This document shows, piece by piece, positions 150-4,449 of a DNA stretch of 4,449 bases (its first letter is position 1; each line of letters begins with the position of its first letter). A program made the translations under genes and the position numbers. Where the stretch lies: IMG/VR virus record IMGVR_UViG_2778261509_000009; one strand, given 5' to 3'. The notes below the pieces were generated by a model, which was not told where the DNA came from, did no database searches, and was given only the letters and a program-made list of their open reading frames with translations. Origin of the DNA: a virus (taxonomy: Duplodnaviria; Heunggongvirae; Uroviricota; Caudoviricetes).

Positions 150-455
150 TCACATCCAACTTTTTTGATAAGCGGAAAGTTCTCCAGCCATTGCATCCTT
201 GTAAAGTTGATGGGCTGGCCATGGATAGTCACTAAAATTTAGACATACTGAGTAAAACCCGTTGAGATTGGCTGGTTTTCCTCTTCTAAGGTGTTCATAA
301 ATGGCTGTTTTACCAGTACCTTTTCTTCCAAGAACCAACCAAGCCCTACTTTCAATAATATCCTTTATCGCCGGTAGCTTAAAAAAATAGGTCTGTAAGT
401 CCCGATCTGTTTCTGCTGAAACTTGAAATTCTGGTAGCCAGTCTCTAATGTCCAC
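150..455 (-). CDS. small Walker-A (P-loop) protein, 101 aa; possibly a truncated or minimal NTPase
   Basis: ORF from the six-frame track. GTG start at 455 preceded by a strong SD (minus strand reads GTAAAGAGGAAAAT-GTG). Translation contains LVLGRKGTGKTAI, which fits the Walker A pattern GxxxxGK[ST]. No clear Walker B follows and the ORF is too short for a complete ATPase domain. Coding sequence is AT-rich by eye compared with the replication genes. Confidence 0.55.
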   Translation of the reverse strand: MDIRDWLPEFQVSAETDRDLQTYFFKLPAIKDIIESRAWLVLGRKGTGKTAIYEHLRRGKPANLNGFYSVCLNFSDYPWPAHQLYKDAMAGELSAYQKSWM

Positions 456-523
456 ATTTTCCTCTTTACATTACATTACCTTTATGTTTTTCCAAAATAA
501 ATCAAAGTCATATGGCGTATCAA

Positions 524-561
524 GTTTTTTTGATTATTTATGAGCTCATACTCAAAAAAAC
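524..561. repeat. imperfect palindrome: 12-bp perfect palindrome TATGAGCTCATA (539-550) flanked by inverted arms GTTTTTTTGA (524-533) and TCAAAAAAAC (552-561)
   Basis: Read directly from the sequence. The outer arms are exact reverse complements but are asymmetrically spaced around the central palindrome. Lies in the AT-rich intergenic region about 70-105 bp upstream (minus-strand sense) of the Walker-A ORF start. Confidence 0.5.
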
Positions 562-770
562 TAAATCTAATTTATCTTACGTTAACTAAAGATTTCATAT
601 GTTAGTATGCTCAAGCAATGCTACTGCTGGAGTCTGATGATATCCGTTATACACTAATTGCCACGCACACAAGCGACATCAGTTCATGGCACAAAGCAGA
701 CAACCACGCTACCTCTACCCTATGCCATGAAAATGTCAATTTACATCTTAACTAATGCACTTTAATCTCG

Positions 771-1193
771 TCACTTAAATAGATACCGAACATTTCCCTG
801 ATAAAACGACAATATGCGCTGCATAACTTCGCTCTTCCGGCACTCGCGACAGATTATGTTTAGACGACTGTCGTAGCGACGTATTTCTCCATCAGGTAGT
901 GACCAGATAAGGTCCGGATCAACCACAGCGGGTTTCTTCACCTTCGCCCTAGAGAGTTTTTTGCGGGCATTTTGCCAGTCCTTTCGTGCCTGTTCAGACG
1001 GGAATAACCCGTAGCCGGAGTTGTATACATAACCACTGGCAACCAGCTCTCTGGCAAGAATGCTCATCAGATATCTTGTCGCACCTGTTTTAGCTTCCAA
1101 CTGTCGTAATGTCTCGCGACCGCTCTGGCGCACAAGTTCGACCACCTGCTCTTTAATTTTTTCCCGCTCTTCCTGTGTAAAAACTTTTGCCAC
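771..1193 (-). CDS. hypothetical 140-aa protein immediately downstream of the replication initiator; N-terminus looks like a winged-helix/HTH-type DNA-binding region (by-eye impression only)
   Basis: ORF from the track. GTG start at 1193 preceded by a near-consensus SD (minus strand reads TAAGGAGGACTT-GTG). Begins 40 nt after the initiator stop, same strand. N-terminal stretch TQEEREKIKEQVVELVRQSGRETLRQLEAKTGATRYLMSILARELVASGYV has the helix-turn-helix look of small regulators. No specific family recognised. Confidence 0.75.
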   Translation of the reverse strand: MAKVFTQEEREKIKEQVVELVRQSGRETLRQLEAKTGATRYLMSILARELVASGYVYNSGYGLFPSEQARKDWQNARKKLSRAKVKKPAVVDPDLIWSLPDGEIRRYDSRLNIICRECRKSEVMQRILSFYQGNVRYLFK

Positions 1194-1233
1194 AAGTCCT
1201 CCTTAAAATTACCTCATGACCTGAAATCAACAC

Positions 1234-2199
1234 TTATCCCCTGAAACCAGGCGGAATTTCTGTATCCGGTTCAGAAATATGATTCACACAACGCTGTACA
1301 GGTGAACGTCCCAAGCGGATGACCAGTTCGTCCCATTTTTCGCGGAGTTTTGACGGGCTCATGATGTTTTTTACCCAGAATGGATCTCGCTGTACCCGAC
1401 CAAACATTTCGCAAATTTGTCTGTGGCTTCTGCCATCCAGCATCCGCATTGTGCGCACGTCATTGGCCCAGGCTGTCCAGTTAGGCTCTTTTGGTCGCAT
1501 GATCTCTCCATCGTCGCTGGCAGCCTGTTCGTAAAGGTTCACGATCCGCCCCCAAATCCACTGCGCACACGCCAAATCCTCCCTGCTACCCCACTGGCGT
1601 TTTTTCGCACTAAACACAACCGCGTCGGGGTTCCGGGTTAAAAAATCCTGTTCAGCGGTCTGCGGGTCCGGTTGCGAAGCTTCCGGACGAAAAGTGTTTT
1701 TATTCTCTGTAGTAATCTCTGTTGTATTCTCTGTAAGATCATCAGGCCATTTTGACCCGATGACATTGGGTCGTTTTGAACCAATGGAGCGTTTCATTTT
1801 GACCTCTTCCATCGTGTCATTTTGACCTGATGGAGCGGCGCATTTTGAACCGATGGATTCGTTCAATTTGCCACCATCTAAAAGCTCGCTCCCATAGTTG
1901 ATCGTGTAGAAATTGGTCATATCGCGCTTTGATTTATTGAGCTTTTCACAACGCAAAAGCCCCAGCGTTTTCAGACTTGCAAACGCGCGCTTTAACGTTG
2001 ACTCTGACCAGAATGGGAACTGTTCCAGCCATTGTTCCGTTGTGTTGTAAATCCAGCGAACACCATCACATTCCATGCCGGAATTGGTATCTCTCAACCA
2101 GTAATGCAACTGCTGCAACACAATGGCTTCATTTAAGCCAATCTTCATCGCAAGCTGTGTGTTTATAACCAGTGGGCGTTCAGCAAAAAGAAGGCTCAT
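1234..2199 (-). CDS. phage replication initiator (functional analogue of lambda O; iteron-binding origin-recognition protein)
   Basis: Long minus-strand ORF. The origin-like repeat array lies inside the coding sequence and encodes a repetitive low-complexity linker (SIGSK..SIGSK..VIGSK, TENTTEITTEN), as in lambda where ori sits within O. N-terminal region (AMKIGLNEAIVLQQLHYWL...WSESTLKRAFASLKTLGLL) resembles winged-helix origin-binding domains. Gene order Cro, cII-position gene, initiator matches lambdoid early operons. The track ORF begins at a TTG (2253); I place the start at the first ATG (2199, MSLLFAERPLV...), which overlaps the upstream gene by 20 nt. The start remains uncertain. Confidence 0.8.
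   Translation of the reverse strand: MSLLFAERPLVINTQLAMKIGLNEAIVLQQLHYWLRDTNSGMECDGVRWIYNTTEQWLEQFPFWSESTLKRAFASLKTLGLLRCEKLNKSKRDMTNFYTINYGSELLDGGKLNESIGSKCAAPSGQNDTMEEVKMKRSIGSKRPNVIGSKWPDDLTENTTEITTENKNTFRPEASQPDPQTAEQDFLTRNPDAVVFSAKKRQWGSREDLACAQWIWGRIVNLYEQAASDDGEIMRPKEPNWTAWANDVRTMRMLDGRSHRQICEMFGRVQRDPFWVKNIMSPSKLREKWDELVIRLGRSPVQRCVNHISEPDTEIPPGFRG
1701..1736. repeat. three tandem 12-bp repeats (TATTCTCTGTAG / TAATCTCTGTTG / TATTCTCTGTAA); candidate AT-rich unwinding element of the origin
   Basis: Read directly. Period is exactly 12 bp. Immediately adjacent to the iteron array on the side that is downstream in the initiator gene's orientation, matching the lambda ori layout of iterons followed by an AT-rich region. 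Confidence 0.6.
1748..1863. repeat. iteron array: five direct repeats of ~23 bp with core CATTTTGA(C/A)C(N)GATGGA; candidate origin of replication
   Basis: Copies begin at 1748, 1772, 1795, 1818 and 1841 (spacings 24, 23, 23, 23). A degenerate sixth copy (CAATTTGCCACC) begins at 1864. The third copy diverges in its 3' half. Located inside the replication initiator coding sequence. Confidence 0.8.
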
Positions 2200-2701
2200 A
2201 ATTCCATCCAGCTTTTTGTTGGTATTGCAGTCGATACGCAAGTTTGAAAGCAATTGCTTTTTCTATAAGTTCGTCAGTTTCACGATCCACTACGGCAGGA
2301 TCAGCAAAAAGCAGTCCGGACTCCACCACATCGCCATATTCTTTGTTTAACCCGGCGATCATGTACGTGATGCTTTTTCCGTCACTAATTTCACGATACA
2401 ACCTGAAATCATTAATCCGGATAGCCTCCATAATTGCAGGCACTAGCGCCGTGAACTTTTCACGCTTATCCCTAGTGTCGATAGCCTTCCAGCGTTCGAA
2501 TATCTTCACTCGATTAACGCCAAGCGCTCGCTGATCAACCGCGCCACCTTCATCTGTGACACGCTGAACATCGATGTTCGGGCGCTCTTTCAAAGCCCAG
2601 AATGCTTCAGTGATTAATATCGTCGCCTGCTCCTGTGTCATTCCTGGTCGACATATCCAGGCATCCAGAGCCTCACGAGCCTGTTCAGGAGTGATTTTCA
2701 T
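2180..2701 (-). CDS. hypothetical early regulatory protein in the cII position (173 aa); possibly YdaT/CII-like, not verified
   Basis: ORF from the track with an ATG start at 2701. The start lies inside the last codons of the Cro-like gene (17-nt overlap; minus strand reads AATGAAAATCACTCCTGA), and the 3' end overlaps the initiator start by 20 nt, consistent with a tightly coupled operon. Functional assignment is by synteny only. Confidence 0.75.
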   Translation of the reverse strand: MKITPEQAREALDAWICRPGMTQEQATILITEAFWALKERPNIDVQRVTDEGGAVDQRALGVNRVKIFERWKAIDTRDKREKFTALVPAIMEAIRINDFRLYREISDGKSITYMIAGLNKEYGDVVESGLLFADPAVVDRETDELIEKAIAFKLAYRLQYQQKAGWNYEPSFC

Positions 2702-2912
2702 TGTTCAACCGCCCCGCCCGCTTCGTCTTACGATATTCGTCATAAACTTTGGGATCATACTGAAGCTCCCCGCCAGATGCCTCCTGTAGACGCATCGCGC
2801 GACCTTCAGGAACCAGTATCCCCCAAGCAGCAACACTTGCCAGTCTCACTCCTGCGGCATTGGCAAGCTTTGTTTTGCTGCCAAAAAAAGTAATTGCGTC
2901 AGCTTTAAGCAT
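2685..2912 (-). CDS. dicC: Cro-like small DNA-binding protein, DicC-type (75 aa)
   Basis: Translation MLKADAITFFGSKTKLANAAGVRLASVAAW...GRAMRLQEASGGELQYDPKVYDEYRKTKRAGRLNNENHS matches my recollection of E. coli Qin DicC and the YdaS/Cro-like family. Divergent from the DicA-like repressor. The track ORF starts at a TTG (2915); the adjacent ATG at 2912 has a consensus SD (minus strand reads AATAGGAGGCTTTG-ATG). Confidence 0.88.
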   Translation of the reverse strand: MLKADAITFFGSKTKLANAAGVRLASVAAWGILVPEGRAMRLQEASGGELQYDPKVYDEYRKTKRAGRLNNENHS

Positions 2913-2925
2913 CAAAGCCTCCTAT

Positions 2926-2943
2926 TGTTAGACTTTTCTAACA
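2926..2943. promoter_or_regulatory. operator O1: palindrome TGTTAGA-cttt-TCTAACA in the dicC/dicA divergent intergenic region
   Basis: Exact 7-bp inverted arms with a 4-bp spacer, read directly. The same palindrome recurs at 3437-3454. Lies immediately upstream of the dicC-like SD and overlaps the candidate -10 of the minus-strand promoter. Confidence 0.65.
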
Positions 2944-2970
2944 TTATTGTGCGCGGGATACCTAAGTCAA
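2943..2970 (-). promoter_or_regulatory. candidate sigma70 promoter for the Cro-like/replication operon: -35 TTGACT (plus-strand 2965-2970), 16-bp spacer, -10 AATAAT (plus-strand 2943-2948)
   Basis: Hexamers read on the minus strand. Predicted transcription start near 2936, giving a leader of about 24 nt to the dicC-like ATG. Operator O1 overlaps the -10 and start site. Not experimentally supported. Confidence 0.4.
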
Positions 2971-2992
2971 GAAAAATTAGAATTACCTAACT

Positions 2993-3400
2993 ATGGATAC
3001 AAGAACCCTAGGCCAGCGAGTTCTGGCGCGACGAAAAGAATTACGCTTAACACAACGAGAAGCTGCGCGCCTCGCTGGGGTTGCTCACGTCACAATTTCA
3101 CAATGGGAAAGAGACGAAACCCAGCCAGTCGGAAAACGATTGTTTGCTTTAGCGGATGCTCTGAAGTGCTCACCTACATGGCTAATGTTTGGTGACGAAG
3201 ACAAGGCACCAGTGCCGGCACAAGAACTTCATGTGGAAACAGAGCTAACTCCCAACCACAAAGAATTGATCGAATTATTCGATGCTCTTCCATCTTCCGA
3301 GCAGGAAGCCTTGCTGTCTGAAATGCGCGCAAGAGTAGAAAACTTCAACAAACTCTTCGAAGAAATGCTTAAAGCGCGTAAAAATAAATCAATAAAATAA
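2993..3400 (+). CDS. dicA: XRE-family HTH repressor, DicA-like (135 aa); prophage immunity repressor
   Basis: ATG start. Classic HTH region LTQREAARLAGVAHVTISQWERDE. Overall sequence (...GKRLFALADALKCSPTWLMFGDEDK...LIELFDALPSSEQEALLSEMRARVENFNKLFEEMLKARK) matches my recollection of E. coli DicA in length and motifs. Divergently arranged with the Cro-like gene. Confidence 0.92.
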   Translation: MDTRTLGQRVLARRKELRLTQREAARLAGVAHVTISQWERDETQPVGKRLFALADALKCSPTWLMFGDEDKAPVPAQELHVETELTPNHKELIELFDALPSSEQEALLSEMRARVENFNKLFEEMLKARKNKSIK

Positions 3401-3432
3401 CATTCTTTTCAAGTGATTAGTTGCGCCCACTC

Positions 3433-3458
3433 TTTTTGTTAGACTAATCTAACAAAAA
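3433..3458. promoter_or_regulatory. operator O2: perfect 11-bp inverted repeat TTTTTGTTAGA-ctaa-TCTAACAAAAA (core TGTTAGA-N4-TCTAACA at 3437-3454)
   Basis: Read directly; arms are exact reverse complements. Same core and spacer length as O1. Sits between the repressor stop and the ydfA-like gene. Confidence 0.7.
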
Positions 3459-3462
3459 ACAC

Positions 3463-3491
3463 TTGCCTCTTATGTTAGGTTATTCTAAATT
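3463..3491 (+). promoter_or_regulatory. candidate promoter of the rightward operon: -35 TTGCCT (3463-3468), 17-bp spacer, -10 TAAATT (3486-3491)
   Basis: Weak hexamers (each about 4/6 to consensus), but flanked by O2 upstream and overlapped by O3, the arrangement expected for a repressor-controlled promoter. Low confidence. Confidence 0.3.
3473..3490. promoter_or_regulatory. operator O3 (degenerate): TGTTAGg-ttat-TCTAAat
   Basis: Same 7-4-7 architecture as O1 and O2 with one mismatch in the left arm and two in the right arm. Centre lies 36 bp from the O2 centre. Confidence 0.5.
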
Positions 3492-3568
3492 ACTTTCCAT
3501 CAAGACACCGCACGGTGTTCTCAGCAAACAGTTCCGCTACCCCGGCGTTAAGGGGAAATGAGGTCAGC

Positions 3569-3721
3569 ATGGATACTATCGATCTTGGCAACAGCGAATC
3601 TCTGGTATGTGGCGTGTTCCCCAACCAGGACGGCACGTTCACCGCGATGACGTATACCAAAAGCAAAACGTTTAAAACCGAATCTGGCGCGCGTTGCTGG
3701 TTAGCCAGAAACACTGACTGA
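3569..3721 (+). CDS. ydfA: YdfA-like small protein (50 aa), first gene of the repressor-controlled rightward operon
   Basis: ATG at 3569 preceded by an SD (GGGGAAATGAGGTCAGC-ATG). Translation MDTIDLGNSESLVCGVFPNQDGTFTAMTYTKSKTFKTESGARCWLARNTD matches my recollection of E. coli Qin YdfA, which follows dicA in Qin. The track ORF begins earlier at 3515, but that extension has no homology support. Confidence 0.8.
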   Translation: MDTIDLGNSESLVCGVFPNQDGTFTAMTYTKSKTFKTESGARCWLARNTD

Positions 3722-4098
3722 TGAGGCTGACGATGGAATTTAAAGATTTACCGTCTGATGTACAGAAAACAGCAGCTCATACATTGCATTCTGTGCTGCG
3801 AGAAATCGGGAAAGATATTGCAAGCGAGCCAGCAAAAGATCTGGCCCGGAAAATCAAGACCGCTTTCGTTGAGCTTTATAATGTTGGCACTGACTCTGAA
3901 ACTGTCGAGACCAAGACCGTAAGTTCACCAATATTCTCACTTGAGCCAGGCGTATTATCAGGTGAAATATGCACCGAGATTTCCAGCGAACTGCTTCCGG
4001 TAATACGAGAAGCAATTTGCCGTCGCGGTTTGGATGGAAGTTACGATCATGACGTCCTGCAAGTTCTCAGGACAATGGTGACTTCACTGGGGATTTGA
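3721..4098 (+). CDS. hypothetical acidic protein (125 aa; 121 aa if started at 3733), unknown function
   Basis: ATG at 3721 overlaps the ydfA-like stop by one base (TGATG), suggesting translational coupling. An alternative ATG at 3733 has a GAGG SD 6 nt upstream. No family recognised. Occupies the position where Qin carries ydfB/ydfC/dicF/dicB. Confidence 0.6.
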   Translation: MRLTMEFKDLPSDVQKTAAHTLHSVLREIGKDIASEPAKDLARKIKTAFVELYNVGTDSETVETKTVSSPIFSLEPGVLSGEICTEISSELLPVIREAICRRGLDGSYDHDVLQVLRTMVTSLGI

Positions 4099-4267
4099 TC
4101 CCTGCGTCCTCTAACCTTTTGATATAGCGGTCCTCCAAGAAGCGGTAAATTTTGTCGAAATCATCTTTCCCCTCTGGTTTATTCAGAGGATTACAGGACC
4201 CGTAAGTAGCGGCATACATTTCAACCGTTTTATCAAAAATATAAGAGACAAATTCTTCTTTAGTCAT
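4067..4267 (-). CDS. hypothetical 66-aa protein, convergent with and overlapping the preceding plus-strand gene
   Basis: Internal ATG at 4267 with a good SD (minus strand reads AAGGAAATCTAT-ATG). Its 3' end overlaps the plus-strand ORF by 32 nt (4067-4098). The frame stays open upstream to the right window edge, so a longer product is possible. No family recognised. Confidence 0.5.
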   Translation of the reverse strand: MTKEEFVSYIFDKTVEMYAATYGSCNPLNKPEGKDDFDKIYRFLEDRYIKRLEDAGIKSPVKSPLS

Positions 4268-4346
4268 ATAGATTTCCTTCTTGGTTATTCGGGATAAGAA
4301 GGATACCACCTCGCCTGACGTGGTTAAAAGCAGGCACACAACACGA

Positions 4347-4408
4347 AAGCGCACGGCGAAGTTCGTCTCACTGTACGGTGTCGTTAAATTTAATTCGACC
4401 GTGCGCTT
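4347..4408. repeat. 10-bp perfect inverted repeat AAGCGCACGG (4347-4356) / CCGTGCGCTT (4399-4408) separated by 42 nt
   Basis: Read directly. Lies upstream (minus-strand sense) of the 66-aa ORF. A small hairpin CCGCG-aaatgg-CGCGG at 4423-4438 is nearby. Function unknown. Confidence 0.45.
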
Positions 4409-4449
4409 CCGGTTGTGGCAACCCGCGAAATGGCGCGGCGGTAAGTATG

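Follow-up and report, generated by a model that had tools for sequence, protein, structure and literature searches.

The 4,449-nucleotide (nt) stretch of DNA analyzed here (IMG/VR record IMGVR_UViG_2778261509_000009; in the following, the window) comes from an E. coli lambdoid prophage of the Qin/DicA type and represents its immunity-replication region. Window positions 152-4449 are 99.9% identical to a prophage of E. coli strain ETEC1738, and phage mEp460_ev081 shares 97.6% identity with the window across most of its length. Our analysis focused on the gene at 771-1193 (minus strand), which codes for a protein of 140 amino acids (aa) and follows the gene of the replication initiator (1234-2199, minus strand), where a helicase loader would usually be expected. 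Taken jointly, we consider it probable that the 140-aa protein is a Ren-family member which does not load the helicase, that the window carries an O-only replication cassette, and that the initiator recruits host DnaB-DnaC via a short C-terminal tail of the type found in the host protein DnaT. The initial annotation of this region had offered three explanations for the absent loader: a loader encoded elsewhere, a novel adaptor function of the 140-aa protein, or direct recruitment of the host primosome by the C-terminal part of the initiator. The last of these is favored by a 21-residue match to the DnaT tail and by the retention of this tail in modules without a loader; the recruitment of DnaB-DnaC itself is what we infer from them.

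The DnaT-type tail of the initiator

The initiator (321 aa, annotated by RefSeq with the same extent in the ETEC1738 relative) is composed of an N-terminal winged helix (approximately aa 10-100), a linker predicted to be disordered (109-173), a lambda-O-type C-terminal domain (approximately 190-296), and a disordered tail (297-321). This tail (…SEPDTEIPPGFRG) has its match at the C-terminal end of host DnaT: the final 21 residues of the initiator, VQRCVNHISEPDTEIPPGFRG, encoded at 1237-1299 (minus strand), correspond to DnaT 159-179, and 14 of the 21 positions match in E. coli DnaT, both proteins ending with IPPGFRG-COOH. Similarity to DnaT, which the initial annotation had proposed to look for in the C-terminal region of the initiator, was found in these last 21 residues only. 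A phmmer search against the PDB matched the DnaT chains 2ru8, 6aep, and 9zbt via the tail only, hhalign aligned the initiator with DnaT at residues 301-321 only (probability 93%, E-value 3e-7), and the NCBIfam DnaT model (NF002770) was matched at positions 160-179 by the tail only, with 16.3 bits compared to a cut-off of 201. Neither the N-terminal domain of DnaT nor its DNA-binding domain PF17948 was detected in the initiator by Pfam, NCBIfam, or hhalign. Since nothing but the tail resembles DnaT, the RAST label 'Primosomal protein I' is not a family assignment. Judged from the sequence, the initiator is not a member of the DnaT family and this label does not describe the whole protein accurately.

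The end of the protein is strongly conserved. From 120 clusters of initiator homologues, 109 end with GFRG, the remainder being truncated or fused, and I315, P316, G318, F319, R320, and G321 are invariant. Three subgroups of homologues end with EPDTEIPPGFRG, VDYSQIPAGFRG, and ECDTRIPEGFRG, respectively, and the approximately 20 residues ahead of the tail cannot be aligned between these subgroups. The initiator of Shigella phage 75/02 Stx has a body unrelated to that of the window initiator and is identical to it in the last 19 residues. O of phage LLS ends with VDTKIPEGFRG.

A scan of IMG/VR for the pattern D-x-x-I-P-x-G-F-R-G-stop resulted in at least 120 loci. Among the matches listed, 118 had the stop codon, and 109 of these closed open reading frames (ORFs) of 190-406 aa. 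The bodies of the tail-bearing ORFs among these listed matches were window-like, SfIV-like, 75/02-like, YdaU/DUF1376 with a DnaT domain, lambda-O-N-like, or of other types. In a second scan comprising one genome per species, the listed matches ending a long ORF were 64 DnaT orthologues, 63 of them with dnaC as the next gene, and 22 prophage initiators, and nothing else. The other 37 listed matches end no long ORF and were mostly chance occurrences in other phyla, together with a few truncated ORFs in enterobacterial genomes. All tail carriers checked against the titles of the listed records belonged to the Enterobacterales. Redundancy is present in the IMG/VR sample, and the counts from both scans are lower bounds. 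The searchable literature, which did not extend to subscription journals, contained no report of a DnaT-type tail on phage initiators. With regard to sequence, the IPxGFRG tail is a portable motif carried by several unrelated initiator bodies.

The genes following tail-bearing initiators were surveyed in 97 IMG/VR loci with at least 900 nt of downstream sequence, again among the matches listed. In 51 of these 97 listed loci a DnaC-like gene, the product of which is 51% identical to E. coli DnaC, is located few nt past the initiator stop codon (2-6 in most cases). In 32, none of which contains a loader in the locus, a DUF977 gene was found within 60 nt of the stop codon, almost always at +40 nt, and genes for a methylase, HNH protein, ParB, or antirepressor were next in 14, which have no loader either. 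A lambda-P-like gene followed in none of the 97. Sets of initiators anchored on the loader, which are made up of close relatives (84-100% identity), were uniform in their endings: IP[PL]GFRG in all 68 initiators upstream of DnaC-like loaders and LTNTDWIYGV[DE]L in all 75 upstream of lambda-P-type loaders. The host dnaT-dnaC operon, with a gap of 2 nt, has the same geometry as the DnaC-containing phage cassettes in that the loader gene starts few nt after the stop codon of the tail.

P-paired initiators (L133-L212; L004:2664-3734) share an ending of their own, represented by …LDLTNTDWIYGVDL in lambda O and by …EALDCTDWRDD in YdaU of Rac-SA53, which is paired with a P-like protein and lacks the IPxGFRG tail. 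These endings point to a second tail motif, specific for P, which is interchangeable with IPxGFRG.

The 140-aa protein and the empty loader slot

As described in the initial annotation, a short protein with a near-consensus Shine-Dalgarno (SD) sequence is encoded right after the initiator. The ORF starts with GTG, a start that RefSeq places identically in the 99.9% identical E. coli prophage, and stops with TGA at 771-773 (minus strand). The SD sequence AAGGAGG (1198-1204, minus strand) is located 4 nt ahead of the GTG, and the initiator stop codon (1234-1236) 40 nt upstream of the gene. The protein has 865 homologues. By these sequence features, the ORF is a real gene.

The protein matched Pfam PF06163 (DUF977) with an E-value of 9e-29 and 100.7 bits (cut-off 22.1), its residues 1-135 covering positions 1-133 of the 134 profile positions, and phrog_142, 'Ren-like exclusion protein', with an E-value of 7.6e-45 over positions 1-113 of 116. 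Lambda Ren matched the same PHROG profile with its residues 1-95 (E-value 1.6e-41). In direct comparison, the C-terminal motif NIICRECRKSEVMQRILSFY aligned with NLVFKECRQSAAMKRVLAVY of lambda Ren (BLASTP E-value 5e-6; hhalign E-value 2.4e-5; 20-24 C-terminal residues). Both follow the pattern N-h-h-x-x-E-C-R-x-S-x-x-M-x-R-h-L-x-x-Y. Because the direct BLASTP and hhalign alignments cover these C-terminal 20-24 residues only, the evidence for kinship of the N-terminal part with lambda Ren is the shared profile. Lambda Ren and the 140-aa protein have in common this full PHROG profile and an N-terminal winged helix-turn-helix (HTH), and the genes of both come last in the replication operon. They differ in length, lambda Ren comprising 96 aa and the protein of the window containing an inserted basic disordered linker (approximately aa 70-105), and in context, as ren is located downstream of O and P whereas DUF977 directly follows the initiator with no loader gene in between. 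Moreover, Ren itself reaches no Pfam model. Homologues are named LygF in GenBank after a Salmonella marker region, a name that carries no function. In the searchable literature DUF977 was mentioned in one unrelated paper and LygF only as the name of this marker-region gene.

An AlphaFold2 model (mean predicted local distance difference test score, pLDDT, 76) predicted a winged HTH and a long helix at residues 7-84 with pLDDT values of 88-97, a disordered basic linker at residues 86-104, and a helical C-terminal part of low confidence. The low confidence of the C-terminal third can be attributed to a shallow alignment of 27 sequences with at least 85% identity. Foldseek searches with this model in the PDB and BFVD resulted in generic winged-helix proteins only (GntR, MarR, AspA, RPA32), none with an E-value of 1e-3 or below, and in no loader, DnaT, DnaD, or DciA fold. 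A sequence search of the PDB returned nothing under an E-value of 0.1. The protein contains no Walker A motif GxxxxGK[ST], and searches in Pfam, PHROGs, and NCBIfam led to neither ATPase nor loader families, lambda P (PF06992), DnaC/IstB (PF01695), and DciA included. An HTH-like N-terminus and the lack of ATPase motifs, both noted in the initial annotation, are consistent with these results. Based on its profile matches, the 140-aa protein is an ordinary Ren/LygF (DUF977) member and neither a helicase loader nor a stand-in for one, and DUF977 is a gene for a small winged-helix protein which closes the early-right replication operon in many lambdoid prophages. The lambda gene ren was defined genetically by resistance to Rex exclusion. 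By homology with lambda Ren, the Ren-like protein presumably acts outside helicase loading, for instance in protection from exclusion.

The occurrence of DUF977 points in the same direction. In Rac-SA53, the order is YdaU, a lambda-P-family protein, DUF1627, and LygF. In Shigella phage 75/02 Stx the initiator is followed by a DnaC/IstB-type loader, DUF1627, and a Ren-like gene, and in PhiR46_1 a DUF977 homologue is located downstream of a P4-type primase module. DUF977 is absent from the loader-less modules of SfIV, PhiR29_1, vB_EcoS-716R3, LLS, and SfIV-like prophages of Citrobacter and E. coli. Since the gene is found beside loaders or a P4-type primase and is missing from other loader-less modules, its presence does not depend on whether a loader is encoded. 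The Rac-type (YdaU-YdaV) and Stx-phage modules resemble the window in gene order, namely Cro-like, YdaT/CII-like, initiator, optional loader, optional DUF1627, and DUF977, and the tail is likewise present on many of their initiators. They differ in having a loader of their own, which is of the DnaC/IstB type or, in Rac-SA53 with its tail-less YdaU, P-like.

The 40-nt intergenic segment between initiator and DUF977 (1194-1233, minus strand), which contains the SD sequence, is occupied in sibling modules by approximately 1.55 kb comprising a dnaC-like gene and DUF1627. Initiators of the 325-aa type and of the 358-aa type are each found in both layouts, with and without the dnaC-like gene. When the layouts were compared, 99.5% identity extended up to the initiator stop codon and resumed 9 nt before the DUF977 start. 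Between these breakpoints, the approximately 1.55 kb of the DnaC version are opposed to 31 unique bases in the loader-less version. The junction of the window is of this loader-less 40-nt type, and the window is an O-only version of a modular replication cassette. The initial statement that the 140-aa protein occupies the loader slot is misleading. Its gene is not a replacement: since the sibling dnaC-like gene and DUF1627 are located between the same initiator and DUF977, the latter is the next conserved gene and the loader slot is empty.

Further observations concern this junction. The 31 bases specific to the loader-less version (1205-1233, minus strand) hold a three-codon mini-ORF, ATG AGG TAA. 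The string GTCATGA in the junction resembles the start region of the sibling dnaC-like gene (CGTGTCATGAAAAAC) and may be a deletion scar. DUF1627 (approximately 250-270 aa, N-terminal winged HTH; L004:4223-4984, L005:4216-4986, and many IMG/VR loci) is nearly always located beside a phage dnaC-like gene and is lost along with it, and it may be a functional partner of phage DnaC.

The absence of a recognizable helicase loader after the initiator, which had been noted initially, is confirmed by the window and by related phage genomes. The window, 44 kb of the ETEC prophage, 36 kb of mEp460, and the HannyBb genome at its full length of 45 kb were searched by tblastn for lambda P, the P-like protein of Rac-SA53, a phage DnaC-like protein, and E. 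coli DnaC and DnaB, and there was no match with an E-value of at most 0.01. The annotations of ETEC prophage, mEp460, and HannyBb list no loader either. Genomes bearing the same module have been deposited as phages, namely mEp460, HannyBb, and PhiR42_1. An O homologue only was described for 34 of 314 enterobacterial lambdoid phages (Zheng et al., Genome Res 2025, PMC12315714), among them LLS, which the authors isolated and propagated on E. coli K-12. In this publication, which makes no mention of DnaT, PriA, DnaB, or DnaC, O-only replication is graded 'not yet understood', and growth of LLS is reported to be enhanced by RecBCD and its genome to be Chi-rich. The lack of a loader is genuine, but as a puzzle it has been published before: O-only lambdoid phages have been described, so that the observation is correct but not new. 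LLS-type modules are similar to the window in possessing one O-family gene and no helicase or loader, and LLS O also ends with IPEGFRG. They differ in the C-terminal domain of LLS O, which is another one, and in the next gene, which codes for a methyltransferase and is not DUF977.

Candidate origin and proposed recruitment of the host helicase

Residues 147-294 of the initiator share 34% identity with residues 135-270 of lambda O (148 aa, E-value 5e-28). Lambda O contacts P through its C-terminal part. The N-terminal domain of the initiator is RepA_N/DnaD-like and is taken as the putative origin-binding domain. No Pfam model, Phage_rep_O and PF17948 included, was matched by the initiator, and RefSeq labels it as hypothetical. 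A repeat search revealed candidate origin iterons at 1740-1871, 5-6 copies of CAT..G..C.TTTTGA[AC]C..ATG with a period of 23-24 nt, each roughly palindromic, which lie within the linker-coding DNA of the initiator gene. In an adjoining A+T-rich stretch (1701-1736), the repeat search also revealed three tandem 12-nt repeats, TATTCTCTGTAG, which may represent a candidate unwinding element. The window resembles the lambda O-P module in the location of iterons inside the initiator gene beside an A+T-rich segment, in the disordered linker, and in the O-type C-terminal domain. It differs from that module in the lack of a P gene, in the N-terminal domain, which is RepA_N/DnaD-like and not Pfam Phage_rep_O, and in the DnaT-type tail that replaces LTNTDWIYGVDL, the ending of the 75 out of 75 sampled P-linked initiators.

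According to our model, the iteron-bound initiator itself would bring host DnaB-DnaC to the phage origin, with the IPxGFRG tail probably serving as contact peptide in a role similar to that of DnaT at restart sites. A more general version, in which IPxGFRG is a portable DnaB-DnaC contact peptide common to host DnaT and to phage initiators of at least four body types, is put forward only tentatively. If true, this version would account for the loader-free replication of O-only lambdoid phages, which would connect directly to host DnaC. It would also identify the long-missing contact by which DnaT hands DnaB-DnaC to restart sites and would make IPxGFRG the counterpart of the LTNTDW… tail of P-linked initiators. 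By itself the 140-aa gene is ordinary, one more Ren/DUF977 gene. Approximately one tenth of enterobacterial lambdoid phages are O-only, and for these the window adds a concrete, testable handle on DnaB loading.

Several points weigh against this model. Knowledge on the function of the Ren family derives from lambda genetics. The contact of the tail with DnaB-DnaC is our proposal. In vitro, deletion of DnaT residues 154-179 lowers the affinity to single-stranded DNA (ssDNA) only about two-fold, and a preprimosome structure paper of 2026 suggests that the N-terminal domain of DnaT, not its tail, contacts DnaB/DnaC; the route by which DnaT recruits DnaB/DnaC is stated as unknown in the DnaT literature. 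The loader-less O-type initiator of vB_EcoS-716R3 (L009:3417-4325; partial genome record) ends with …VDYSLPENSGFRT where its relatives have …VDYSQIPAGFRG, and this tail (…NSGFRT) looks degraded. A rule that the tail never occurs with P was rejected on account of one exception: in Citrobacter sp. Cu233 (L339; NZ_JAOWIF010000028.1) an IPEGFRG-tailed initiator with a lambda-O-type C-terminal domain is followed by a P-like gene and DUF1627, the only such case among the matches listed. Finally, the association between tail and DnaC-like loaders could result from physical linkage alone, because the codons of the tail border directly on the loader gene and close relatives make up the loader-anchored sets. 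Better evidence for a host target comes from the loader-less modules, in which the tail is retained and its flank diverges.

The main competing explanation, which we regard as doubtful, is that the tail docks on PriA/PriB or ssDNA instead of DnaC/DnaB and that O-only phages use the PriA restart primosome or recombination-dependent replication. The IPxGFRG tail is, we presume, loosely similar to the acidic-IPF tail of SSB, which PriA binds. According to the literature, the C-terminal domain of DnaT docks on PriA via a hydrophobic surface and forms filaments on ssDNA, and loss of residues 154-179 reduces the cooperativity of ssDNA binding as well as its affinity. The RecBCD-enhanced growth and the Chi-rich genome of LLS (PMC12315714) would also fit this explanation. 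On the other hand, no data in the literature covered locate the last 20 residues of DnaT within the PriA interface, and the tail also occurs on initiators with a DnaC-like loader of their own, whereas among the matches listed it was found only once with a P-type loader. An iteron-bound initiator with a lambda-O-type domain rather suggests origin-specific theta initiation. The window could also be viewed as a decayed remnant which lost the dnaC-like gene and DUF1627 and no longer fires on its own. Its layout equals that of a DnaC-containing cassette minus approximately 1.55 kb, the end of an IS3-family element lies in the window, and the near-identical ETEC prophage contains insertion sequence (IS) elements and a split integrase. 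We nevertheless judge this to be unlikely, as the same module is present in the deposited phages mEp460, HannyBb, and PhiR42_1, K-12 supports growth of the O-only phage LLS, both initiator and tail are intact with the GFRG end preserved in 109 of the 120 homologue clusters, and the breakpoints coincide exactly with gene boundaries as in ordinary mosaic exchange.

The other two explanations considered initially fared less well. A canonical loader or helicase elsewhere in the prophage could have been overlooked in a window of only 4.4 kb, and lambdoid genomes are mosaic with some hypothetical genes lacking an assignment. This is very improbable in view of the empty tblastn searches of the 44-kb ETEC prophage, 36 kb of mEp460, and the complete 45-kb HannyBb genome for P, DnaC, and DnaB, the concordant annotations, and the 34 O-only phages among 314 (PMC12315714). 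A function of the 140-aa DUF977 protein as novel adaptor, which would substitute for P or DnaC in recruiting or loading the host helicase, is close to refuted. DUF977 is the sole gene between initiator and spacer, belongs to the same operon, and has a strong SD sequence, its predicted winged-helix domain could bind DNA or protein, and the searchable literature holds no experiment on its function. However, the protein is a homologue of Ren (phrog_142, PF06163), its homologues are found beside DnaC-like, P-like, and P4-type primase modules, it is missing from many loader-less modules of otherwise complete phages and prophages, and it displays no loader-like fold or motif. The YdaT/CII-like gene upstream of the initiator was also considered as a loader and dropped; its product is a phrog_163 member, and Rac-SA53 has ydaT at this position beside a P-like loader.

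Neighboring genes and the spacer

On the minus strand the genes are arranged in the order Cro/DicC-type regulator, YdaT/CII-like gene, initiator, 140-aa gene, spacer, and ATPase gene. The Cro/DicC-type regulator (76 aa; 2685-2915, minus strand; Pfam P22_Cro, E-value 1.2e-12) opens the rightward early operon, and a DicA-type HTH repressor (135 aa; 2993-3400, plus strand; Pfam HTH_3, E-value 1.5e-14) is encoded divergently from the replication operon. The YdaT-family/CII-like protein (173 aa; 2180-2701, minus strand) matched Pfam YdaT_toxin (E-value 1.2e-5) and phrog_163 (E-value 2e-40), and the end of its gene overlaps the initiator start by 20 nt (2180-2199). In some database entries (P0122-P0124, 448 aa; P0156-P0157) this ORF and the initiator are merged as 'toxin YdaT family protein'. 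The 448-aa fusions may be frameshifted copies or artefacts of gene calling. Labels to be corrected are the 'toxin YdaT' of such fused calls as well as 'Primosomal protein I' (RAST) and 'hypothetical protein' (RefSeq) for the initiator.

The 315-nt stretch following the 140-aa gene (456-770), initially described as non-coding, contains no ORF of 60 aa or more. Its GC content is 0.30-0.35 compared to 0.45-0.56 in the genes. It is composed of an approximately 80-nt 3' flank common to DUF977 genes and an approximately 235-nt low-GC leader, which always accompanies the downstream low-GC ATPase gene and not DUF977. In a scan of 400-1300, promoter and terminator sites were no more frequent than in shuffled sequence, and DUF977 is followed by no convincing terminator; a single weak promoter-like site lies within the spacer (523-494, minus strand).

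Downstream of the spacer, the N-terminal 101 codons of a Sll1717-family P-loop ATPase are located at 150-455 (minus strand; NCBIfam NF047389, E-value 5.6e-16). The gene is intact in ETEC1738 (495 aa) and is cut after codon 101 in the window by the end of an IS3-family element. Positions 1 to approximately 165 match IS3-family transposase ends, and the same element end is present on many E. coli plasmids and chromosomes. Because the intact ATPase gave a weak match to an NCBIfam 'anti-phage protein' model and to a PADLOC candidate system, it may be a prophage-borne defence gene which is inactivated in this strain. PADLOC reported no defence system for DUF977, the YdaT-like protein, or a 125-aa ORF, and an Rfam search of the whole window returned nothing at an E-value of 0.1 or below, DicF included. 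This 125-aa ORF (phrog_33007; 3721-4098, plus strand) and a convergent 95-aa ORF (phrog_34441; 4067-4354, minus strand), to which RefSeq assigns 66 aa, overlap at their 3' ends by approximately 30 nt, and both are conserved in the Qin-type region from ydfA to dicB.

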